From Candidatus Caenarcanales bacterium (lineage in GTDB: Bacteria; Cyanobacteriota; Vampirovibrionia; LMEP-6097): DNA of 50,552 nucleotides. The stretch is taken from NCBI GenBank assembly GCA_947459525.1, contig CANHDW010000002.1, positions 1-50,552 on the forward strand, given 5' to 3'. Made by a program: the position numbers and the translations under genes. Under the pieces are notes generated by a model that was given only the letters and a program-made list of their open reading frames with translations, ran no database searches and had not been told where the DNA came from. Within the stretch, counting starts at the first letter, position 1. Each line of letters begins with the position of its first letter. Of this stretch, positions 882-50,016 are shown one piece after another.

Positions 882-1874
882 CTAAAAACAAAAAGCCGAC
901 AGCGAAGCAATAACCACAACCGAAATAACCGTCAAGTAAATAGCAGCCTTTAAACCAAATGCCTGCTTATAAACAAAAACCGTAGTTAAATTCACAGAAG
1001 GACTAGCCGTCATAAAAGCAAGCACAGCTCCTATAGGCACTCCCATATTTAAAAATTCTTGGCTCATAGGAATATCCGCACCTGCACAAAAATAAAAAGG
1101 AAATGCGATCAGTGAGAAAATCCACGGCGATAAATATTTATTAGTTATCACAGCTCGAAAAGCAGTCAGGGATTCATAATTAAAATGAAGCAAGCTTGCA
1201 AGAGATACAGACAAAAGTATCCACGGTAAAAACTGTTTTATCGCAGCGACCAGATCCTCTCGTATATGTGCGAGGACTTCCGTCATCCCTAGTTTATGCT
1301 GATGGGACTGATCACCATCTTCAATTTCTACATTTCCATGATGATGATCAGTTTCACAACAATGTTCCTTGGACGATCCACCTGGAACTAATCTCAACGC
1401 AATAAAATCTGCAATTTTAGCTTCTCCGAAGAAAATGAAAACGTATGTAACTAAAACAGCAAAAGCTATCGCCATTAATAAACGATAGACACTAATCTCC
1501 AAGCCAAAAATTCCATAATTAAGGATTAAAGCTGGAACACTACAAGCATTTCCAGCAAGCAAAAAAGCTAAAATTATTTTCCAGTCAAGCTGCTTACGAT
1601 ACAGTCCTAGAGCAAGTGGAATCATTCCACAGGTGCAAATAGGAATTAATGCACCGAGAAAAGCTGAAACTAATATCATCAAAAAAAGACGTAATTGATA
1701 GCTTAAAAACCGTAAAATTTCCCAAGAAGAATTAGCTCCAGCTAAAGTAACTAATCCTATCTTTTCAAAATACCCATCTGGTAAATAAACTTCTATTAAA
1801 GATGAACAAATAACCGCAACAAAGAATACTGGAAGTATCTCAAGCAATATATGAATAAAATGCTCTATAAACAC
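882..1874 (-). CDS. Predicted permease (DUF318/ArsP-like family) with a His/Cys-rich loop
   Basis: Polytopic membrane protein with the motif LGALIPICTCGMIPLALGL typical of the PF03773-type permeases. The central loop is KEHCCETDHHHGNVEIEDGDQSHQHK. Confidence 0.6.
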   Translation of the reverse strand: MFIEHFIHILLEILPVFFVAVICSSLIEVYLPDGYFEKIGLVTLAGANSSWEILRFLSYQLRLFLMILVSAFLGALIPICTCGMIPLALGLYRKQLDWKIILAFLLAGNACSVPALILNYGIFGLEISVYRLLMAIAFAVLVTYVFIFFGEAKIADFIALRLVPGGSSKEHCCETDHHHGNVEIEDGDQSHQHKLGMTEVLAHIREDLVAAIKQFLPWILLSVSLASLLHFNYESLTAFRAVITNKYLSPWIFSLIAFPFYFCAGADIPMSQEFLNMGVPIGAVLAFMTASPSVNLTTVFVYKQAFGLKAAIYLTVISVVVIASLSAFCF

Positions 1875-4623: not shown

Positions 4624-4739
4624 TCTAGCGTTCCAAGCGACTGAATCACACTCGTTCCCATCCCGAACACGACAGTTAAGGCAGTTTGCGGTGACAATAC
4701 TTGGCTGGAGACGGCCTGGAAAGATAGCTAAACGCTAGA
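4624..4739 (+). rRNA. rrf: 5S ribosomal RNA, not linked to a 23S gene
   Basis: 116 nt. Helix I pairs TCTAGCGTT (5' end) with AACGCTAGA (3' end). Contains the universal 5S core GTTCCCATCCCGAACACGACAGTTAAG. Confidence 0.9.
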
Positions 4740-4752
4740 CTCTATTTTAATG

Positions 4753-4836: not shown

Positions 4837-4875
4837 GGGATTGTTCACGATCTTTTATTTCTGCGTTTTCGTCCC
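4837..4875 (+). repeat. Solo head fragment of the dispersed repeat family
   Basis: GGGATTGTTCACGATCTTTTATTTCTGCGTTTTCGTCCC. Compare GGGACTGCCCACAATCTTCAATTTCTGCGTTTTCGTCGTCC at 20023. Confidence 0.6.
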
Positions 4876-12663: not shown

Positions 12664-12867
12664 TTACTTTTGAGTTGTAGTTGCAGCAGGAGCTTTAGCA
12701 GCTGGAGCAGCTGTGTTAGCTTTAGCAGCAGGAGCTTTAGCTTCTGTTTTTTGTTCAGCTTTAGCTGATTTTTGCTCAGTTTTAGCTGGTTTTTGCTCAG
12801 CTAAATTAGCGTTAGCAGATAGAGTAGCTACAACTAGTAAAGCGAATAATGCAGACATTTTTTTCAT
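12664..12867 (-). CDS. Small secreted low-complexity (Ala/Lys/Gln-rich) protein
   Basis: Signal peptide MKKMSALFALLVVATLSANA followed by AEQK/AKAPAAK-type repeats. Confidence 0.55.
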   Translation of the reverse strand: MKKMSALFALLVVATLSANANLAEQKPAKTEQKSAKAEQKTEAKAPAAKANTAAPAAKAPAATTTQK

Positions 12868-19776: not shown

Positions 19777-19915
19777 CCAAGAAGTAGAAGAAGCCATAAA
19801 ATCATCAGTGATTATTATCATGACAATCACGGTCTACTACTCAATTCTGTATATAGTCAGAGACGGAAGAGCAGAAGATTTAGAACGCGAAAAACATAGC
19901 GATTTGAAAAAATAG
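19763..19915 (+). CDS. Very small membrane protein (50 aa, 1 TM), overlapping the end of the previous ORF
   Basis: MIVISQEVEEAIKSSVIIIMTITVYYSILYIVRDGRAEDLEREKHSDLKK. Its ATG lies inside the last codons of 19528..19776. It is not in the ORF track because it is under 60 aa. Confidence 0.3.
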   Translation: MIVISQEVEEAIKSSVIIIMTITVYYSILYIVRDGRAEDLEREKHSDLKK

Positions 19916-19936
19916 TACCAAAGGTTTATTAAAAAA

Positions 19937-20013
19937 CGACAGAGACGAAGATCTGTAAAAGCGCCAGCTTTTACAATGAAAAAGGCAACCCTCAAGCTCA
20001 AGTCCCTTCGTCG
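19937..20013 (-). repeat. Decayed copy of the tRNA-Asp-derived tRNA-like hairpin unit (unit 1)
   Basis: CGACAGAGACGAAGATCTGTAAAAGCGCCAGCTTTTACAATGAAAAAGGCAACCCTCAAGCTCAAGTCCCTTCGTCG aligns along its whole length with unit 2. Confidence 0.7.
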
Positions 20014-20020
20014 ATGCTAA

Positions 20021-20144
20021 TAGGGACTGCCCACAATCTTCAATTTCTGCGTTTTCGTCGTCCTCATGACCTCATGTACCTTCAGTACACTGCGGTCATT
20101 CGTCCTCCTCAGCCTTGAACTTGTGCGTTTGTGAACAGTCCCTA
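20021..20144 (+). mobile_element. Full-length MITE-like copy of the dispersed repeat (variant arms)
   Basis: Terminal inverted arms TAGGGACTGCCCACAA and TTGTGAACAGTCCCTA flank the conserved core. It sits between two paralogous units, one of which provides an empty site. Confidence 0.85.
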
Positions 20145-20160
20145 ATTTAATTTTAAAAAA

Positions 20161-20241
20161 TGGCGGAGACGAAGATCTGTAAAAGCGCCAGCTTTTACAA
20201 TGAAAAAGTAAACCCTTAGGGTTCAAGTCCCTTCGTCTCCG
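20161..20241 (-). ncRNA. tRNA-Asp-derived tRNA-like hairpin unit (unit 2); function unknown
   Basis: It starts with TGGCGGAGACGAAG, identical to 20262-20275 under the tRNA 3' end. It ends with GGGTTCAAGTCCCTTCGTCTCCG, an inverted copy of the tRNA T-arm plus acceptor. On the minus strand it ends ...CTTCGTCTCC-G-CCA followed by a T-run. Confidence 0.45.
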
Positions 20242-20261
20242 TTATTTTAATTTATTAAAAA

Positions 20262-20338
20262 TGGCGGAGACGAAGGGACTTGAACCCTCGACCCCCTGCG
20301 TGACAGACAGGTGCTCTAACCAACTGAGCTACGCCTCC
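20262..20338 (-). tRNA. tRNA-Asp (anticodon GUC), CCA encoded
   Basis: Cloverleaf folded by hand. Acceptor GGAGGCG/CGTCTCC, D-arm GCTC-AGTTGGTTA-GAGC, anticodon arm CCTGT-CTGTCAC-GCAGG, T-arm GAGGG-TTCAAGT-CCCTT, discriminator G, then CCA. Confidence 0.92.
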
Positions 20339-20436
20339 GCGAGTCGACTTTTTAAAGAGAGATCACCTCTTGCGCATCGAATGCGTTTAAAAATCCTAGC
20401 ATAAAAAATCTAAATTCGTGCCAAGATTAAACTAGC

Positions 20437-31818: not shown

Positions 31819-32190
31819 ATGTTAAAGTACGATACAGAGAATCTTCCACGCATTACCTTTAAAGGAAAAAGGCTTACCGAAAAGCAAATCGCAGTCCTAG
31901 AATTTCTAGCACAGGGGCAGACGAATACAGAAATAGCCGAAAATCTTTTCCTCTCTGTAAGAACTGTAGAATCACACATCTCTAGAATTAGAAGTATTAT
32001 AAGCGAACATATGCCCCAGTCACAGAGAATCAGTGATAGACAGCTCGTTTTATTCGCAAAAGATCTAATCGATGGCTTTAAAATTTTCGACATACTGAAA
32101 AGCGGCATGAATGAAGGCTTTGAGCTGTCAGAATTTAAAACTTATCAAAAAACAGTAAGCCTGAATAATGATAGATATTATATTCAATGA
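31819..32190 (+). CDS. LuxR/FixJ-type HTH transcriptional regulator (stand-alone; HTH is N-terminal)
   Basis: LTEKQIAVLEFLAQGQTNTEIAENLFLSVRTVESHISRIRSII. Confidence 0.75.
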   Translation: MLKYDTENLPRITFKGKRLTEKQIAVLEFLAQGQTNTEIAENLFLSVRTVESHISRIRSIISEHMPQSQRISDRQLVLFAKDLIDGFKIFDILKSGMNEGFELSEFKTYQKTVSLNNDRYYIQ

Positions 32191-32358
32191 GGCGGGCGAA
32201 AACGCAGAAATTGGAGTTGTGCAGCGGTCTCTTTTGGGCGTGTAGCCAAACGAACAAGTTCAAGGTCTGAGGAGGATGAATGACCGCAATGTATCAAGCA
32301 TACATGAGGATCATGAGGACAACGAAAACGCAGAAATTGGAGTTTCGCTACACGCCCC
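32187..32358 (-). mobile_element. Full-length repeat copy (32236-32357) plus an adjacent partial head (32187-32232)
   Basis: Arms GGGCGTGTAGCCAAAC and GTTTCGCTACACGCCC flank a reverse-complemented core. The element fills the whole spacer between the luxR-type stop and the argS stop. Confidence 0.9.
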
Positions 32359-32360
32359 TG

Positions 32361-34256
32361 TTACATTTTCTCTGGTGCAGAGATCGCAAGTATACTAAGA
32401 GCATTTTTTATAACTATCTTAGAAGCTGCCACCAGAGATAACCTAGCCTTCATAACCTCTTCGTTTTCACCTATAATACGATTTTCATTATAGAACTGAT
32501 GAAATAAGCTAGCTAAATTCTTTAAGTAGACTGAGATTTTATAAGGTGCCCTGATATCAGCAGCATCAATAACAAGCTTAGGTAATTCAATCAATTCTAA
32601 AACTAAGCTTCTGATAGTTTTCAACTGCTCTTCACTATGATATTCATCAGAAAAGAGTTTCTTGAAATTTGCAGAAAATGTTTTAAACTCTTCATTTAAT
32701 AAACGTTCTAGCTCATCTACTTCAAAAATAGCAGCTTCTTCCGTATTATCAACTATATTGATACGAGGGCTTACTAAATTACGAAATATACTTGCCGAGC
32801 GGGCATGTGCATACTGTATGTAGTAAACTGGATTATCTTTATCATGTTTTTGCGCTAAAGCTAAATCAAAAACCATGCGATTATTGGCTTGGCTATCCAC
32901 CAGAAAGAATCTCAGGGCATCTTTACCGACTTCAGCTAAAAGCTCATCAACGTTAACTATAGTGCCTTTGCGCTTAGACATTTTTTTCTCAACGCCATCT
33001 TCTTTAACGGAAACCAATTGAATAAAAATCAACTCTAGCTGATCAGGATTATAGCCAATAGCTTGAATCGCCCCACGAATGCCAAGCTCTTGACCATGAT
33101 GATCGCTGCCCCAAACATTAATTAACTTATCAAAGCCTCTGTCAAATTTATCTTTATGATAGGCGATATCACCAGCTAAATAAGTGAACATGCCTTGAGA
33201 TTTTCTAAGGACTCTATCTCGCTCATCACCAAAGGATTTCGCTCTAAACCATAGAGCCGAGTCTTCTTCATACACAGCAGAGACCTCATGGGCGTGGAGC
33301 GGAACTCCAATTTCTGCGTTTTCACCCGCCTCATGATGCTCCGTCACATCTTCTTGCTTTACTTTTACTGCTTTCAGTGTTTCACAGATTAACTCAATTT
33401 TATTTTTATCATTAATTTTCACTTGATGTAGATTCTCGTTCTCCGAGTACCACGTATCGAAATGAACTTCTATGTCAGCTAAAACTTTCTTCTGTAAATC
33501 AAGAAAAAGACTTTTCGCTAATTTACCAGCTATTTCTTTTGCTTGATCACCAGCAAGGGAAGCCGCATCCAAATAGCCTTTTAGCTTAGCTTTATAAATC
33601 TCCGGCTTTAAAACATCTAACATGGAATCCAGTGGATAAGCATCCACTGGATAATTTTCCTTAGTGATGTGACCCTCTTGAATTTGAATTGCAGCTTGAG
33701 CAGAGAGTGAAAGCTTTTCTATCTGCACACCAGCGTCATTAATATAAAATTCACTAGATACATCGTAACCAGCCCAGTCAAGTAATCTTGCAAGAGAATT
33801 ACCCAGAACTGCTTGCCTGCCATGACCTAAATGTAGATTACCAGTAGGATTCGCTGAAACATACTCTATAAGAAAGCGATGCGGCTCCATATCAGCCCGA
33901 GCTTCTTTAGATAAACGCCCATAATTATCTTTCTCTTGATGAATCTCTACTAGAGCAGATTCTAAAAAATCCCAATTCAAACGAATATTAATAAACCCTG
34001 GACCAGCGATAGATATATCACCAATGGCAACTACATCCAAATGTTTTACTATACTTTGAGCTATCTTTACTGGTGCTAGTTTCGCCTCACGAGACAGCTT
34101 TAGGGCTATACTTACGGCGATATCGCCATGATCAGGGTTTTTACATCTCTCCACATCTATATAATCAGAAAAACTTTTCAGCTCACCTAAGTCAGATGCC
34201 GCAATAGCTTTATTTATAGCTATTTGGAATAAATTACGAATCTTGCTGCTTAACAT
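32361..34256 (-). CDS. argS: Arginine--tRNA ligase
   Basis: HIGH-type motif NPTGNLHLGHGR, MSKRKG (KMSKS) and a C-terminal DALR domain. At 631 aa it is longer than typical and carries an internal repeat-derived segment. Confidence 0.95.
   Translation of the reverse strand: MLSSKIRNLFQIAINKAIAASDLGELKSFSDYIDVERCKNPDHGDIAVSIALKLSREAKLAPVKIAQSIVKHLDVVAIGDISIAGPGFINIRLNWDFLESALVEIHQEKDNYGRLSKEARADMEPHRFLIEYVSANPTGNLHLGHGRQAVLGNSLARLLDWAGYDVSSEFYINDAGVQIEKLSLSAQAAIQIQEGHITKENYPVDAYPLDSMLDVLKPEIYKAKLKGYLDAASLAGDQAKEIAGKLAKSLFLDLQKKVLADIEVHFDTWYSENENLHQVKINDKNKIELICETLKAVKVKQEDVTEHHEAGENAEIGVPLHAHEVSAVYEEDSALWFRAKSFGDERDRVLRKSQGMFTYLAGDIAYHKDKFDRGFDKLINVWGSDHHGQELGIRGAIQAIGYNPDQLELIFIQLVSVKEDGVEKKMSKRKGTIVNVDELLAEVGKDALRFFLVDSQANNRMVFDLALAQKHDKDNPVYYIQYAHARSASIFRNLVSPRINIVDNTEEAAIFEVDELERLLNEEFKTFSANFKKLFSDEYHSEEQLKTIRSLVLELIELPKLVIDAADIRAPYKISVYLKNLASLFHQFYNENRIIGENEEVMKARLSLVAASKIVIKNALSILAISAPEKM
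33291..33341 (+). repeat. In-frame intragenic copy of the repeat head inside argS
   Basis: GGCGTGGAGCGGAACTCCAATTTCTGCGTTTTCACCCGCCTCATGATGCTC versus 47872-47922 GGCGTGTAGCGAAACTCCAATTTCTGCGTTTTCGTCGTCCTCATGATCCTC (44 of 51 nt identical by hand alignment). Confidence 0.8.
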
Positions 34257-38138: not shown

Positions 38139-39341
38139 TTAGAGTTTTTTTATTAATGCAAAGATATCTCTGCTGCTTTCAGGTCTTGCAAAGCGATACA
38201 AATTTTTCTTCATCGCCGATATTTTCTCAGGGTTCTTCGCTAAGTCGAAAAGCAAATCAGCAATCTCCTTTTGCGGAGAGTATCGCACAATTCCATTTTC
38301 TGCATTTTCACCACCAGAAAAGGCATCTTGGCGAATCATGAAACCACAACCAGCCTTAACTAAAGCCTCTGCATTTTTAGTCTGATGATCATGAGCAGCC
38401 CAAGGTAAAGGAATTAATATTGGTACTATCAGCGACACTGCCATTTCAGCACAAGTCATAGCACCAGCCCTGCAAATAGCTATATCAACGGTTTTAGAAA
38501 TATTTGCCATCTCATGGGTATAACTTAAAACCTTATAGTTAGAGTATTTATTCGGATCAGCATTTAAATATTTACTTACATGCTCATCAAAAAGCTTAGA
38601 ACCTGTAATGTGAATAATAGATATTCTTTTACCTTCAAGAGCTAATCTCTGATTAAAATCCTCAAAATCTTTAAGTAAAATGCCTATACTATCATTAACG
38701 AACTGGGAACCCTGACTACCACCAGTTACCAAAACCCTCAAATGATTTTCATCACGACTAGCAGCAGCCCCATCAGCGGCTTCCCTATAAATATTTATAA
38801 AATCTTGTGAGACTGGATTACCCGTGTAACGATATTTATCATTAAAATTTACATTTATCGGAAAGCCTAAGCTCACACGACTCGCAAATATTTTAAATAA
38901 TTTATTTACCAATCCAAAATTACTATCAAGATTATGAATTAGGAACTTTGTTTTCGTTATCACACAGGCAAGAAACACTGGCGCTGCCACGTAACCACCC
39001 GTACCCATCACTACGTCAATTTTATTTTCTCTCAGGTAGTTCACAGAGCATTTATAAGCTTTAAAAAAAATACCAAACCATTCTAAGTTTTCTTTAAAAG
39101 AATTATTTCGAGATGGCAGCTTTGGAGCATTAATAGGAAGAAACTGGATATATTCTTTTCTTAGACACAGTTCCTGCTCCAGTTTTCCTTCACCACCAAT
39201 ATAGTAAAGAAAGTTTTTTTCAGCCCCAGCTCGATTACTTTCATCTTCAAATAGCTCAGCTACAGCAAGACATGGATAAATATGTCCTCCAGTGCCTCCT
39301 CCCGTAAACGCAACTCGCACAAGAATATCCTCTATCAACAA
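38139..39341 (-). CDS. murG: UDP-GlcNAc--undecaprenyl-PP-MurNAc-pentapeptide GlcNAc transferase
   Basis: N-terminal FTGGGTGGHIYP and C-terminal CRAGAMTCAEM...AHDHQTKNA. Confidence 0.92.
   Translation of the reverse strand: MLIEDILVRVAFTGGGTGGHIYPCLAVAELFEDESNRAGAEKNFLYYIGGEGKLEQELCLRKEYIQFLPINAPKLPSRNNSFKENLEWFGIFFKAYKCSVNYLRENKIDVVMGTGGYVAAPVFLACVITKTKFLIHNLDSNFGLVNKLFKIFASRVSLGFPINVNFNDKYRYTGNPVSQDFINIYREAADGAAASRDENHLRVLVTGGSQGSQFVNDSIGILLKDFEDFNQRLALEGKRISIIHITGSKLFDEHVSKYLNADPNKYSNYKVLSYTHEMANISKTVDIAICRAGAMTCAEMAVSLIVPILIPLPWAAHDHQTKNAEALVKAGCGFMIRQDAFSGGENAENGIVRYSPQKEIADLLFDLAKNPEKISAMKKNLYRFARPESSRDIFALIKKL
38285..38318 (+). repeat. In-frame intragenic copy of the repeat head inside murG
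   Basis: GCACAATTCCATTTTCTGCATTTTCACCACCAG. Its reverse complement aligns with 32191-32231 (GGCGGGCGAAAACGCAGAAATTGGAGTTGTGCAGCGGTCTC). It encodes GGENAENGIV. Confidence 0.65.
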
Positions 39342-47155: not shown

Positions 47156-47869
47156 ATGGTAGAAATGAATCGTAGAAATTTTCTTAACGCGGCCGCATTT
47201 ACTGGCTTAGGTCTTGGACTCAGTAATGTACTTGGCGCTTGCTCTAAAGGAGGAAAGTTTAATATAAACGAACTCTATCCCATTTATAAAGACGGTCAAT
47301 ATCAAGAAAAAAACTTTGAGCACCTGACTAAAAACGATAAACTCGGCTTAAGCCCAGAAATTATAAAAAACCATCTAGGACTATATTCTAATTACATTAA
47401 AAATGTAAACCAAGCTGAAGCTGAGATGTCAGTAGGGAATATTACAGAATTCGGGATGAAGCATCTAGCCTTCTCTCTAAATGGCATGGCTTTACATGAT
47501 ATCTATTTTACGAACATGAGCACAGAAGAATCTAAGCGTAGTTCTAGCCTGAATAGAGCTATTGATAAAACCTTTGGGTCCTTCGATGCCTACATGAAAA
47601 ATTTAACAGAACTCGCGATGAAAGTAGAAGGCTGGTCAGTAACGGGTCTTAATCTACTTAACGGTAAAATTTTCAATTACGCTCTGCAAGACCACTCTGC
47701 TAATTTCCCTAATTTTATAGTTCCGATATTAGCCCTAGATGTTTATGAACATGCTTATGTAGCCGATTTCAAGAAAGAAGGTAAAGCGAAGTATCTTGAA
47801 GCTTTTACGAAAATTATTGATTGGGATATAGTGAGCCGCAGGCTTGACCTTGTTAAAAACTTAGTCTAA
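47156..47869 (+). CDS. Divergent Fe/Mn-type superoxide dismutase family protein with a Tat signal and lipobox
   Basis: Tat motif NRRNFL and lipobox LGAC. C-terminal LDVYEHAYVADF (compare D-x-W-E-H-A-Y-Y). The His ligand positions are conserved in NHLGLY and LHDIYF. Confidence 0.65.
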   Translation: MVEMNRRNFLNAAAFTGLGLGLSNVLGACSKGGKFNINELYPIYKDGQYQEKNFEHLTKNDKLGLSPEIIKNHLGLYSNYIKNVNQAEAEMSVGNITEFGMKHLAFSLNGMALHDIYFTNMSTEESKRSSSLNRAIDKTFGSFDAYMKNLTELAMKVEGWSVTGLNLLNGKIFNYALQDHSANFPNFIVPILALDVYEHAYVADFKKEGKAKYLEAFTKIIDWDIVSRRLDLVKNLV

Positions 47870-47871
47870 GT

Positions 47872-48110
47872 GGCGTGTAGCGAAACTCCAATTTCTGCGT
47901 TTTCGTCGTCCTCATGATCCTCATGTAAGCTTGATGAATCAAGCTTGTATTTCCGCTTGCTCGCATATGAGACTTGTCTCGCATGCTCGGCATCGCCGGA
48001 AATTACCCGCAGTACACTGCGGTCATTCGTCCTCCTCGGCCTTGAACTTGTTCGTTTGGCTACACGCCCCTAAGAGACCGCTGAACAACTCCATCTTCTG
48101 CGTTCATGAC
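47872..48110 (+). mobile_element. Longest full-length repeat copy (47872-48068) plus an adjacent partial head (48069-48110)
   Basis: Arms GGCGTGTAGCGAAAC and GTTTGGCTACACGCC, the conserved core, and an 84-nt extra central segment. It fills the spacer between two convergent genes. Confidence 0.9.
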
Positions 48111-49014: not shown

Positions 49015-49944
49015 TTAAGAAATTATTTTATGAACTCTAAAGTAATTGGCTCCAGCTTCATAACAGAGTTCATTATATCTTTGCGTTAATAAATCCAAAT
49101 CCATATTACGCTCTGCAAGAGTGCTATTACTTTCACACTGCTCACGAACTCCATTTTCTGCGTTTAAAGCAGCGCCTAAAAAAGACTTACGACTAGCTCC
49201 TATAAGTATTTCAGGATTAAACTCCCGAGACCGCCACATGATTTTATTTTCTGCATTTTTAAGTTTCGGCAAAATCTCAATTAAATCATAGCTGTGATTA
49301 TAATTTTTACCAAAACCTAATCCTGGATCAAGAATTACCCTAGCTAAGTCAATACCATAATTTTCACATAAATCTAAAAATCGAGAAAAAAAATCTATTA
49401 AATGCATTTCAAAAGCGGCTTTCTCATTTTTAGCCTGAGGATAATCACTTAAATAGTAATCTTCTGGAACCTCTAAAGCCTTTAAACTTGGTGGCACACC
49501 ACCTTTCGAGTGCATCGCTATAAGTTTAATCTTCTGTTCTTTATCATACTTAGAAATAAGCTCAAGCTTACGCTCATCAGTAAAGCCTTCTACATCATTT
49601 AAAAAAGATATTTTTTCCTTAAAGAAAGGCTCTAATAGTAAGGCTTCCATGATTTCATATTTGCGAGTATCTATAGATAAAGGGAAATCATATTTACTAC
49701 AAAAAATTTTTAAAAAATTTTCCAAACGCTGATATTCTTCAATCGCTGATACAGGCTCCGCATCAGGGCGAGTAGATTCTGCCCCTACATCTAAAGCGTA
49801 AGCTCCACTTTCCATAAGCTTCTCTGCTTTATCTAAAAGCCAGCCAAGATCACAAAAATCCTTAGAACCATCTGAAAATGAGTCTGGAGTTATATTTAAT
49901 ATCGCTAAATACTTAGCACTTTTCATATTTCCAAATCTAGGCAC
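49015..49944 (-). CDS. folP: Dihydropteroate synthase
   Basis: ILNITPDSFSDGS, DVGAESTRP, DPGLGFGK, GASRKSF and RVHKI. The likely true start is the ATG at 49926 (MKSAKYLAILN...). Confidence 0.92.
   Translation of the reverse strand: MPRFGNMKSAKYLAILNITPDSFSDGSKDFCDLGWLLDKAEKLMESGAYALDVGAESTRPDAEPVSAIEEYQRLENFLKIFCSKYDFPLSIDTRKYEIMEALLLEPFFKEKISFLNDVEGFTDERKLELISKYDKEQKIKLIAMHSKGGVPPSLKALEVPEDYYLSDYPQAKNEKAAFEMHLIDFFSRFLDLCENYGIDLARVILDPGLGFGKNYNHSYDLIEILPKLKNAENKIMWRSREFNPEILIGASRKSFLGAALNAENGVREQCESNSTLAERNMDLDLLTQRYNELCYEAGANYFRVHKIIS
49145..49165 (+). repeat. Short in-frame copy of the repeat head inside folP
   Basis: CGAACTCCATTTTCTGCGTTT versus the consensus CGAAACTCCAATTTCTGCGTTT. It encodes NAENGV in the same frame as the argS and murG copies. 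Confidence 0.45.
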
Positions 49945-50016
49945 GGTTACCGAACTCCGATTTCTGCGTTAGTGCCATCTCTGGGGACTGCTTACAATCT
50001 TCAATTTCTGCGTTTT
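49945..50016 (+). repeat. Two tandem head fragments of the repeat between folP and the next gene
   Basis: GGTTACCGAACTCCGATTTCTGCGTT (49945-49970) and GGGGACTGCTTACAATCTTCAATTTCTGCGTTTTTT (49983-50016). Confidence 0.7.

Follow-up and report, generated by a model that had tools for sequence, protein, structure and literature searches.

The repeat copy found in a spacer of the 50,552-nucleotide stretch of DNA analysed here (the window, whose positions are used throughout) belongs to a non-autonomous MITE that occurs in large numbers in one clade of freshwater Vampirovibrionia, the non-photosynthetic relatives of cyanobacteria, and that works in this new lineage much as the palindromic elements do in Rickettsia. 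The terminal repeats of this element are unusual in that pairing, and not sequence, constrains them.

The core pattern was found by a genome-wide pattern scan in five Vampirovibrionia/Melainabacteria MAGs (JBMOEX01, JBJTTW01, JAGWWP01, RFQS01 and DUDT01), and the scan returned no Rickettsiales. Our family set comprises 113 related loci from these five MAGs, and HMM searches of 0.86 Mb gave 202 left-end and 102 right-end hits, with 82 paired copies and about 80 complete ones. Arm and target site duplication (TSD) statistics were calculated on 71 copies, after exclusion of 9 of 80 with badly paired arms, most of which resemble chimeras of two copies, and covariation was analysed in an alignment of 55 distinct short-form copies. 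The element measures 121 nt in its short form and about 200 nt in its long form, and it is bounded by 16-nt inverted arms followed by a 7-bp inner helix. Its only open frames, of 40-69 codons, code for a low-complexity peptide, and transposase coding capacity is absent. A search with this peptide in a set of 5.8 billion proteins listed only short ORFs called on copies of the element in Melainabacteria/Vampirovibrionia MAGs, with no long host proteins. No match to the element was present in plasmid and phage collections, Rfam 15 gave none over it at gathering thresholds and none at E up to 10 (19900-20360), and our literature search found no link between Melainabacteria or Vampirovibrio and MITEs or palindromic elements. 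The 78-nt central module that distinguishes the long form was considered as an independent repeat and rejected, as it has no occurrence outside the element; it would specifically colonise the central hairpin, and this is part of a second layer of novelty.

Table 1. Copies, remnants and associated sites of the element in the window
Feature	Position	Strand	Remarks
Element copy, short form	20023-20142	+	120 nt (family standard 121); full-length nhmmer match
Left arm of this copy	20023-20038	+	arm pairing
Inner helix half CAATTTC	20041-20047	+	
Central hairpin	20073-20092	+	
Inner helix half GAACTTG	20117-20123	+	
Right arm of this copy	20127-20142	+	
Left TSD TAATA	20018-20022		flanks the 20023 copy
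Right TSD TAATT	20143-20147		flanks the 20023 copy; family-wide TSD statistics
Paralogous empty site	20243-20261		spacer after second tRNA-like unit; MAFFT alignment
Short-form copy, arm class GGGCGTGTAGCG	32236-32357	-	122 nt; nhmmer, arm pairing
Right-truncated older copy	32187-32231	-	left arm GAGACCGCTGCACAAC and left box
Long-form copy	47871-48069	+	199 nt; perfect TSD CTAAG (47866-47870 and 48070-48074)
Nested 78-nt module of the 47871 copy	47928-48005		
Right-truncated older copy (GAGACCGCTGAACAAC...)	48074-48104	+	directly after the long copy
Left-end remnant in argS (ORF 32361-34256, minus)	33290-33341	+	antisense, family frame; translation EHHEAGENAEIGVPLHAH
Left-end remnant in ArsP-type permease gene (882-1874, minus)	1304-1335	+	translation GNVEIEDGDQSH
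Left-end remnant in dihydropteroate synthase-like gene (49015-49944, minus)	49137-49165	+	translation GAALNAENGVREQCE
Internally deleted mini copy (GGGATTGTTCAC...TCCC)	4837-4875	+	downstream of 5S rRNA gene
Two adjacent degenerate left-end or mini copies	49941-49976, 49984-50016	+	upstream of DHPS-like gene
Weak left-end remnant in murG (38139-39341, minus)	38276-38309	+	E = 5.6e-4; antisense like all other genic copies

Insertion site and target duplication

The sequence-only reading had recognised the element in the spacer but placed it at 20021-20144, with AAT or TA as its target duplication. The sequences that it had described as arms, TAGGGACTGCCCACAA (20021-20036) and TTGTGAACAGTCCCTA (20129-20144), are present, and the perfect inverted repeat is broken at two adjacent positions (GG vs AA). 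The element proper is 20023-20142, the TA at either outer edge being part of the target duplication. Within these limits 13 of the 16 arm pairs are Watson-Crick, and this copy is a resident, slightly decayed one. The duplication is in fact 5 bp long and reads TAATA/TAATT here; in L015, the orthologue from MAG DUDT01, it is TAATT/TAATT without a mismatch. The site is also filled in a second orthologue (L034). When the element and one TAATT are removed, the site becomes collinear in a MAFFT alignment with the empty paralogous site and with the equivalent L015 and L034 sites, with indels of just 1-3 nt, so that the earlier comparison of the two spacers survives proper alignment. The copy entered the spacer after a tRNA-like unit adjoining tRNA-Asp, and this insertion predates the split of the window's organism from two sequenced relatives.

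Across the family, the 5-bp duplication was perfect in 20 of the 71 copies, and 40 copies had at least 4 matching positions out of 5, while shuffled flank pairs gave a mean of 0.9 perfect duplications and a maximum of 4. Among TSD lengths of 3-9 only 5 bp gave a signal, and the duplications are A/T-rich, position 4 being A or T in all 40. An insertion can also be seen in a conserved enzyme, since in the CysN-like protein of RFQS residues 18-213 and 257-477 align with 20-217 and 216-432 of PDB 1zun_B, and the 43 residues between the aligned blocks have no counterpart there; the orthologous DUDT site (L113) lacks the full copy that the RFQS site (L085) carries. Arrival by insertion, as first proposed from the paralogous spacer, is thus borne out by the TSD statistics, the empty site and this clean insertion.

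The core shared with the copies at 32236 and 47871 was also described correctly, with 87-93% identity in the interior, and the arms of the 20023 copy do differ from those at 32236-32357 and 47871-48069 and pair with each other. A third arm type occurs, (G)AGACCGCTGCACAAC at 32216-32231 (minus), with a variant, GAGACCGCTGAACAAC, at 48074-48089. The 32236 copy sits between a LuxR-type gene and argS, whose 3' ends converge on it, with AACAG/AAAAG as its duplication (32358-32362 and 32231-32235, + strand), and is inserted exactly into the flanking 5-mer of the older copy at 32187-32231; at the site orthologous to this older copy, JAGWWP01 (L005) has a complete copy of the GAGACC class. The CTAAG duplication of the 47871 copy includes the TAA with which a superoxide dismutase gene stops. 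New copies of the family insert head-to-tail beside resident ends. Minis orthologous to the 4837-4875 copy are found at two other loci (L010 and L027), and the degenerate copies at 49941-50016 have an orthologue, L050_2598. Neighbouring ORFs of the window copies that have no Pfam hits gave no NCBIfam match either.

Arm covariation and proposed mobilisation

The 71 copies carry 48 distinct left arms, and the 16-nt arms are 89% Watson-Crick paired, with the helix running on into the 7-bp inner repeat. Changes on both sides were observed in 15 of the 16 arm pairs, also within arm classes, with up to 4-5 pair types per arm column, in counts that are inflated by relatedness among copies. Paired cells amounted to 91.6% and slid registers reached just 24-39%, while the observed arm covariation was above 500 of 500 column shuffles and every slid-register control. 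Within classes, the both-sided variants GAGACCGCTGCACAAC, GAGACGCCTGCACAAC, GAGACCCCTACACAAC and GAGACTGCTGTATAAC are each perfectly paired, so that the classes are not discrete sets devoid of compensatory change. The central hairpin, which is not at an end, covaries too: 2 of its 7 stem pairs have both-sided changes, and its variants GTAC/GTAC, GTAT/ATAC and GCAC/GTGC occur with no unpaired intermediates. Its 5-nt loop has 31 variants in 55 copies, which assort independently of arm class. These results support the conclusion that what is constrained in the terminal arms is their complementarity, not their sequence. Pairing is not needed at every position, however, since a G-G mismatch at arm position 12 is fixed throughout the GGGCGTGTAGCG class.

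The interior varies nearly nowhere, almost every unpaired position being invariant or nearly so. Substitution rates by codon position are flat in it (6.5%, 6.9% and 8.6%), which rules out protein-level constraint and shows that conservation acts at the nucleotide level. In the orthologous trio formed by the 20023 copy, L034 and L015, interiors differed at 2 of 265 positions and left flanks at 27 of 294 (p = 3e-6); the interior thus stays intact in resident copies, even intergenic ones, the other part of the second layer of novelty. The arms of the trio differed at 10 of 96 positions with uncompensated changes, and since resident copies lose arm pairing, the constraint must act on source copies at mobilisation. 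Copies with perfect duplications, which are the younger ones, were not better arm-paired (rho = 0.10). At other orthologous sites the arms are identical or nearly so (29-32/32), but the interior has been swapped in patches or a short form stands in place of a long one, as at the DUDT01 site (L050) orthologous to the long 47871 copy, which holds a short form (29/32); these differences indicate gene conversion.

The sequence-only reading had offered selection on a hairpin or several subfamilies as explanations; both hold, and they are not alternatives, as the arms fall into four main classes that mosaics connect. It had also called the pattern the opposite of classical MITEs, which is right in that the arms are variable and the interior conserved, but the element is still a MITE, as it ends in inverted repeats and makes a target duplication of constant length (5 bp). 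Both strands of the 20023 copy are predicted to fold into arm helix, inner helix and central hairpin, and folding z-scores ranged from -2.4 to -7.6. An RNA-level hairpin in particular is not indicated: G-T and A-C arm mismatches numbered 27 and 44 (p = 0.057), with no clear strand preference and no one-strand preference for G-U pairs.

We consider it probable that the copy at 20023 is that of a MITE moved in trans, which needs its arms and stem as paired structure and its unpaired tracts as sequence. The enzyme acting in trans would make 5-bp staggered target cuts (DDE-type, judging from the TSD alone) and would recognise the invariant unpaired tracts by their sequence, while it would need the outer arms and central stem only in base-paired form, in a cruciform or a folded single strand. 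In the lineage of active copies, arms and stem would drift in a compensatory manner and the hairpin loop freely, resident copies would then decay, and ectopic gene conversion between copies may reinforce the near-identity of the interior. A search for an autonomous partner in the window and in 8-kb blocks around the copies (ends up to 3 kb apart, arm-like inverted repeats of 0.4-4 kb) gave spurious pairs only, and no transposase with matching ends was found in the same sequences. That mobilisation passes through a folded single-stranded or cruciform intermediate, with the unpaired tracts read by sequence and the arms and central stem seen by the enzyme just as helices, and yet leaves a staggered-cut duplication of 5 bp is a tentative proposal that we hold to be rather unlikely; if true, it would explain terminal repeats that resemble RNA stems together with a frozen interior. 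We know of no bacterial MITE or insertion sequence that combines such an intermediate with staggered-cut duplication.

There could also be no selection on pairing, one arm being copied from the other by panhandle or hairpin-templated repair or by quasi-palindrome template switching, and the core being kept by gene conversion. Copying by end repair or template switching is familiar from parvovirus and adenovirus terminal repeats. The persistent arm mismatches lie at inner positions 11, 12 and 15 and the outer ten positions are almost always paired, as end-in repair would give; mosaic arms are mirrored on both sides (L039 combines a class-1 inner mismatch with class-3 outer arms), and the evidence of interior gene conversion is good. 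However, resident orthologues gain uncompensated arm changes at about the flank rate, which speaks against correction in situ, and the copying presupposes a putative single-stranded transposition intermediate, so we regard it as unlikely. A folded intermediate is needed both by arm copying and by mobilisation in trans, and the two overlap in this respect.

If the arm classes were plain subfamilies, each with the terminal repeat of a different parent insertion sequence, read alike at both ends by its cognate transposase, complementarity would be a trivial by-product and no hairpin would play a part. The four main classes have diagnostic inner-helix changes (CATTTTC/GAAACTG with GAGACC arms), all of them occur in all five genomes, and the mismatch types are roughly symmetric, as duplex DNA predicts. 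This explanation is nevertheless distinctly improbable, because the left arms form a mosaic continuum, single- and double-position changes within a class are perfectly paired, the covarying central hairpin is not an end, and the 4-5 pair types per column would need dozens of transposase specificities in small genomes, of which none were seen in the window or the 8-kb blocks. A structured RNA with a host function (cis-regulatory, small RNA or transcript stabiliser), repeated by chance, would account for covarying stems, a free loop and invariant single-stranded tracts, and RNA of the antisense strand folds very stably (z = -7), with the interior kept in situ even in an intergenic copy. We consider it very unlikely, though, as Rfam gave no match, intergenic copies are mixed in orientation relative to neighbouring genes, the one-strand G-U excess is not significant, the arms decay in situ, a scan of the 20023 copy found no promoter-like or terminator-like signal inside the element, and a 5-bp TSD, copies nested in one another and in-frame insertion into genes are what characterises a mobile element.

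Reading frame and host genes

The length of the short form and its duplication (121 + 5) add up to 126 bases or 42 codons, and those of the long form to 207 (202 + 5), so that every insertion leaves the reading frame in register. Genes hold about 40% of the complete copies, with carB, cysN-like, galE, glpD and recJ among their host genes, and the Pfam domains of the carB, galE, glpD and recJ hosts are broken at the insert. All 32 complete copies in long ORFs are antisense to the element in phase 0, and 58 of 59 genic left-end remnants agree with them in strand and phase. Of the six frames, two tend to be open, the antisense one in 47 of 57 copies and the sense one in 39 of 57, but no genic copy uses the sense frame. 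The antisense frame gives a strongly charged, hydrophilic predicted peptide (…RTSSRLRRTNDRSV..HEDHEDDENAEIGV…), with a GRAVY of -1.34 vs -0.26 for the sense frame. As far as sequence allows us to judge, the element is tolerated inside housekeeping genes because exactly 42 whole codons are added.

Remnants are 54% genic and in frame, which fits in-frame trimming under selection; the one in argS replaces a region and adds no length relative to PDB 3fnr. The internally deleted minis do not obey the 3n rule, 6 of 8 lengths leaving a remainder of 2, and are deletion products in non-coding DNA. Left-only remnants outnumber right-only ones by 120 to 20 across loci, a ratio biased by the fetching of loci with a left-end pattern, and by at least 9 to 1 weak match in the window. 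This asymmetry would suit a retroelement using target-primed reverse transcription, in which the end kept is the 3' end of an antisense RNA, but that origin is hardly credible, given that complete copies have a fixed 5-bp TSD and terminal inverted repeats, truncated copies lack a flanking duplication (3 matching 5-mers vs 4.8 expected), over half of the remnants are genic and in frame, and the same cysN orthologous site has a truncated copy in one genome and a complete copy in another, so that truncation came after insertion. Removal or skipping of genic copies, in the RNA or during translation, might also leave host proteins unaltered, for instance by ribosome bypassing as in the mitochondrial 'byp' elements and T4 gene 60, and a strong hairpin between identical 5-mers would suit such bypassing, but it is extremely improbable here, as 90 of 91 genic copies keep a 3n length, an open frame, one strand and one phase, all needless if skipped, and in-frame trimmed remnants persist as ordinary coding sequence.

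Thanks to whole-codon arithmetic and a single benign frame, the way in which selfish DNA becomes protein sequence can be analysed directly. In practice, gene callers produce dozens of spurious 'hypothetical proteins' of 33-70 residues on intergenic copies, and inserts of 42 or 69 residues in housekeeping proteins of these MAGs can mislead alignments and phylogenies.

Comparison with known systems

Protein-coding palindromic repeats have hitherto been treated as a peculiarity of Rickettsia. The Rickettsia palindromic elements RPE-1 to RPE-10 (Ogata et al. 2000, 2002) are, according to the summaries in PMC10969869 and PMC2229807, palindromes of about 100-150 bp with a long stem-loop that are intergenic and often in frame in conserved housekeeping genes, where they add a conserved peptide to an apparently tolerant host protein and encode no transposase, all of which resembles the element described here. 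The hosts here are Vampirovibrionia and not Rickettsia, and the two were compared by description, with no evidence of a sequence relation. The target duplication of the Rickettsia elements is listed as '?' in the summary of PMC2229807, whereas the Vampirovibrionia element has a clear 5-bp TSD, an explicit rule of length plus TSD equal to 3n, arms that are hypervariable but complementary around a nearly invariant interior, a nested 78-nt module and head-to-tail insertion beside resident ends. The same phenomenon is seen here in an unrelated, free-living or predatory lineage, at a density comparable to or higher than that in Rickettsia.

Classical MITEs with open frames, namely Correia/NEMIS in its 107-bp form, ERIC and YPAL (Delihas 2008, PMC2229807), are likewise small, with terminal inverted repeats, a target duplication, stem-loop transcripts and occasional in-frame ORF fusion. 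They typically have TA termini or TSD, conserved repeats that define the family and only exceptional genic copies, unlike the present element, with its large genic share of complete copies and outer terminal repeats that are its least conserved part. REP/REPIN sequences mobilised by RAYT transposases, with their GTAG/CGTC classes (PMC3733652), are hairpin repeats in which pairing apparently weighs more than sequence, and one of our arm classes contains GTAG. However, REPs are 20-40 bp long, extragenic and devoid of TSD, with a conserved tetranucleotide tag, while our element makes a target duplication, conserves a 90-nt interior and is genic in 40-54% of its copies; membership in REP/REPIN is rejected by the TSD, the genic copies and the absence of the tag from most arm classes.

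Tn3-derived miniature elements (TIMEs) and other transposons with 5-bp duplications produce A/T-rich ones, as does our element, whose ends also start with G-rich triplets (GGG, GGC or GAG). Judged by eye, these ends lack the conserved 38-bp GGGG...TAAG end of Tn3 and have no TAAG at the inner edge, and insertion directly beside resident ends runs counter to the target immunity of Tn3; the window and the 8-kb blocks around the copies showed no Tn3-type transposase. In integron attC sites and IS200/IS605 ends, the recombination enzymes recognise a folded single strand, whose stems vary in sequence but hold their structure. By analogy, the Vampirovibrionia element may follow the same recognition logic, but those systems have no target duplication, use a tyrosine recombinase or HUH transposase, and lack a long conserved interior and in-frame genic insertion. 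Terminal repeats held by complementarity only, together with a covarying central stem, constitute a natural mutational data set suited to asking whether a very short element must fold to join its ends for transposition.

Repeat family and its copies in the window

The copy that a sequence-only reading had placed at 20021-20144 was confirmed as an element with the arms given there, TAGGGACTGCCCACAA and TTGTGAACAGTCCCTA, and its limits and target-site duplication (TSD) were corrected. It lies on a 50.5-kb metagenome contig (ENA ERZ27263728, k141_2002310; G+C ~36%) and, as described, shares its interior with two other copies (87-93% identity), both of which carry GGCGTGTAGCG-type arms. The third arm type, (G)AGACCGCTGCACAAC, is present as well, together with a variant, GAGACCGCTGAACAAC. 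The left arm and adjoining conserved box are all that remains of at least nine partial copies in the window, four of which are intragenic (in an ArsP-type permease gene, argS, a dihydropteroate-synthase-like gene and murG).

Element copies and neighbouring features in the window
Feature	Position	Strand	Remark
Copy in question	20023-20142		120 nt, corrected limits
Copy with GGCGTGTAGCG-type arms	32236-32357	-
Long copy with GGCGTGTAGCG-type arms	47871-48069
Central module of the long copy	47928-48005
Third arm type	32216-32231	-
Variant of third arm type	48074-48089
New copy beside older copy	32187-32357	-
New copy beside older copy	47871-48104	+
Duplicated CTAAG, SOD gene	47866-47870		holds TAA stop
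Flanking 5-mer of the 32236-32357 copy	32358-32362
argS	32361-34256	-
Element remnant in argS	33290-33341
5S rRNA gene	4624-4740	+	4.6 kb upstream without 23S rRNA, holds minus-strand protein genes
Mini element copy	4837-4875		downstream of 5S rRNA gene
Tandem GCAGCAGGAGCTTTAGCAGCTG-like units	12683-12746
tRNA-like unit 1	19936-20015	+
tRNA-like unit 2	20160-20242	+
tRNA-Asp	20262-20338	-

The argS remnant adds about one residue net relative to PDB 3fnr, so the protein is not lengthened; by this sequence comparison, a native ArgS segment appears to have been replaced by element-derived sequence. The 5S rRNA gene appears to be unlinked. The short, overlapping tandem units detected by a repeat finder form an alanine-rich coding repeat with no relation to the element.

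Relatives were sought via the core CTYCAATTTCTGCGTTTTC in a scan of one genome per species, where matches were concentrated in five MAGs carrying the labels Vampirovibrionia, Melainabacteria or Cyanobacteria, with Proteobacteria as the label of one, and a few single chance matches fell in Bacteroidota and other phyla. RFQS01 (MAG WB4_1_1465; loci L007-L114), labelled 'Proteobacteria bacterium', has near-identical or orthologous loci in common with Melainabacteria/Vampirovibrionia MAGs and the window, with flank identities mostly of 83-100%, and its public label is probably wrong. Profile searches of the window and 113 fetched loci (0.86 Mb) returned 202 left and 102 right ends, which gave 82 left/right pairs; 80 were extracted as complete copies, ~60 of the short form (121 nt) and ~19 of the long form (190-202 nt), beyond which there were internally deleted minis and many right-truncated copies. 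A search of 5.8 billion proteins with the encoded peptide matched only short ORFs of Melainabacteria/Vampirovibrionia MAGs. Plasmid and phage collections and Rfam held no match to the element, and a literature search found no publication tying the Vampirovibrionia/Melainabacteria lineage to such repeats.

Insertion, target duplication and reading frame

With element limits set at the arm ends (GGG...CCC), flanking 5-mers were identical in 20 of the 71 copies used for the arm and TSD statistics, and 40 of the 71 had no more than one mismatch. From these statistics nine of the 80 complete copies were excluded because their arms pair badly, and the majority of the nine resemble chimeras of two elements. 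Shuffling the partner flanks left 0.9 perfect matches on average and never more than 4, and lengths of 3, 4 and 6-9 showed no signal in the same 71 copies. The duplicated 5-mers are A/T-rich, with A or T at position 4 in every case. In the copy in question, the duplication previously given as AAT or TA is 5 bp, TAATA/TAATT, and its orthologue in the MAG DUDT01 has a perfect TAATT/TAATT. The paralogous empty site was upheld: minus the element and one TAATT, the spacer after tRNA-like unit 1 is collinear with the empty spacer after unit 2, and also with the corresponding sites in two relatives, with indels of 1-3 nt only. The TSD and the collinear empty site establish that this copy arrived by insertion, an event common to the window, RFQS01 and DUDT01 and therefore older than their divergence. 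Retro-insertion is disfavoured, as truncated copies are not flanked by a duplication.

The two tandem tRNA-like hairpin units adjoin tRNA-Asp; each starts with the reverse complement of the tRNA-Asp 3' end (TGGCGGAGACGAAG) and ends with a copy of the tRNA T-arm and acceptor 3' strand, and one gives a sub-threshold Rfam tRNA match (22.4 bits). Among relatives' loci, L034 has one unit and L015 (in DUDT01) has two and a remnant, compared with two in the window.

The most notable property of the element, which the sequence-only reading did not see, is its frame-preserving insertion into housekeeping genes. Complete copies are intragenic in 24 of 60 short and 8 of 19 long cases, in ORFs of 0.7-2.6 kb, and all 32 are antisense to the element orientation in one common codon phase, a strand and phase shared by 58 of the 59 truncated left-end copies in long ORFs. 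The single strand and phase follow from the lengths, since element plus 5-nt TSD makes whole codons in the short form (121 + 5 = 126 nt, 42 codons), the short variant (130 + 5 = 135 nt, 45 codons), the long variant (199 + 5 = 204 nt, 68 codons) and the long form (202 + 5 = 207 nt, 69 codons). The conserved encoded insert reads G-x-x-A-[KE]-R-x-SSRLRRTNDRSV-x(3)-HEDHEDDENAEIGV-x(5-6). As a rule two of the six frames are open, antisense in 47 and sense in 39 of 57 copies; no copy within a gene uses the sense one, whose peptide would be more hydrophobic (GRAVY -0.26 vs -1.34 for antisense). Intergenic copies, often with a stop codon a few bases away, take both orientations relative to their neighbours, and the genic bias therefore reflects survival of insertions and not the mode of inserting.

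Among the host genes are carB, a cysN-like GTPase gene, galE, glpD and recJ, and their Pfam domains are broken at the insert. The CysN-like protein aligns with PDB 1zun_B without loss on both sides of the insert, leaving 43 residues without counterpart; the same site in a sister MAG holds a ~14-residue remnant only, so truncation comes after insertion.

In 15 of 41 intergenic copies, the upstream gene is co-oriented and its stop codon lies within ~0-9 nt of the left end, and in the SOD gene the TAA stop falls inside the duplicated CTAAG. This suggests that stop-containing A/T-rich 5-mers are favoured or best-tolerated targets.

Hairpin constraint, conserved interior and variable arms

The structure tested on 55 distinct short copies comprised three helices: the arms (16 pairs), the inner helix CAATTTC/GAACTTG (7 pairs) and a central hairpin (7 pairs). 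Pairing reached 91.6% of cells; column shuffles gave 78.6% and slid registers 24-39%, and none of 500 column shuffles attained any observed measure. Both-sided changes were found in 15 of 16 arm pairs, where a single position can show as many as four or five pair types; in two central-stem pairs U-A/C-G alternates with C-G/U-A (eight copies each), and unpaired intermediates are absent. Kinship among copies inflates counts of this kind. The 71 copies have 48 distinct left arms, which group into four main classes linked by mosaics, and one class has a G-G mismatch fixed at arm position 12. Discrete classes without internal compensation do not describe the arms, because both-sided changes also occur within a class; the proposed hairpin constraint is real at the family level, and subfamilies exist too. 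Both strands fold into the same architecture (z-scores -2.4 to -7.6) and the asymmetry between G-T and A-C arm mismatches is not significant (27 vs 44, p = 0.057), so no strand, nor RNA over DNA, is singled out.

Copies differ mostly in two regions, the arms and the 5-nt loop. At most of positions 1-13, 10-60% of copies depart from the consensus, and in the right arm ~10-50% do; the loop has 31 variants among 55 copies, and these are distributed independently of arm class. Unpaired interior positions are nearly all invariant or close to it. Interior substitutions had no codon-position bias, and the constraint is therefore on nucleotides, not peptide. In the trio of window, L034 and L015, differences number 2/265 in the interior, 27/294 in the left flank (Fisher p = 3e-6 vs interior) and 10/96 in the arms, and two of three arm changes in the copy in question break pairs. 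Differing patches in some orthologous pairs match variants of other copies; in other pairs the whole 78-nt central module is present or absent, with arms identical or nearly so (29-32/32).

This structured module of 78-84 nt, with TA on both flanks, lies inside the central GTAC hairpin of the window's long copy and of copies in L095, L040, L076, L035, L012, L079, L062 and others. It takes one of two alternative positions, in the left or right stem half, is duplicated in tandem in L062, and was not seen anywhere outside the element; it may be a second mobile element targeting the first, or gene conversion may have spread it. It is common for a new copy to sit upstream of an older right-truncated copy of another arm class, at exactly 5 nt from the older copy's left end (two cases in the window and many further loci, e.g. 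L085, L092, L042, L055), a spacing which places the insertion in the older copy's own flanking 5-mer and suggests that resident left ends attract insertion. Tandem copies appear to have been collapsed by recombination (L085 vs L113).

In the mechanism we propose, arm and central-stem pairing and the sequence of the unpaired tracts would be requirements for being copied, so that both would be preserved in the source-copy lineage; resident interiors would additionally be homogenised through ectopic gene conversion, and resident arms would merely decay. Mainly from the covariation in a stem away from the ends, we infer that the mobilising enzyme may recognise a folded or cruciform substrate. No transposase was found within the window and the fetched blocks around copies. 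The mechanism of this structure-only constraint on terminal repeats is the most interesting part of the system.

Comparison with known systems

Comparison also covered REP/REPIN elements, integron attC sites, IS200/IS605 ends, retroelements and curated RNA families, and for each of them the element lacks a defining feature. It fits the structural definition of a bacterial MITE, apart from a parent insertion sequence; the contrast with MITEs drawn earlier thus does not stand, unlike the hairpin constraint, the subfamilies and the insertion. Rickettsia palindromic elements (RPEs) are palindromic repeats of ~100-150 bp that many conserved genes carry in frame (PMC10969869, PMC2229807). The element falls outside that group, with another host lineage and no evident homology, RPEs being compared by description. 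Its 5-bp TSD is definite, whereas that of RPEs is given as '?' (PMC2229807), and neither an explicit 3n length rule nor a frozen interior between hypervariable yet complementary terminal repeats, as seen here, is established for RPEs. In function, RPEs are the nearest known system.
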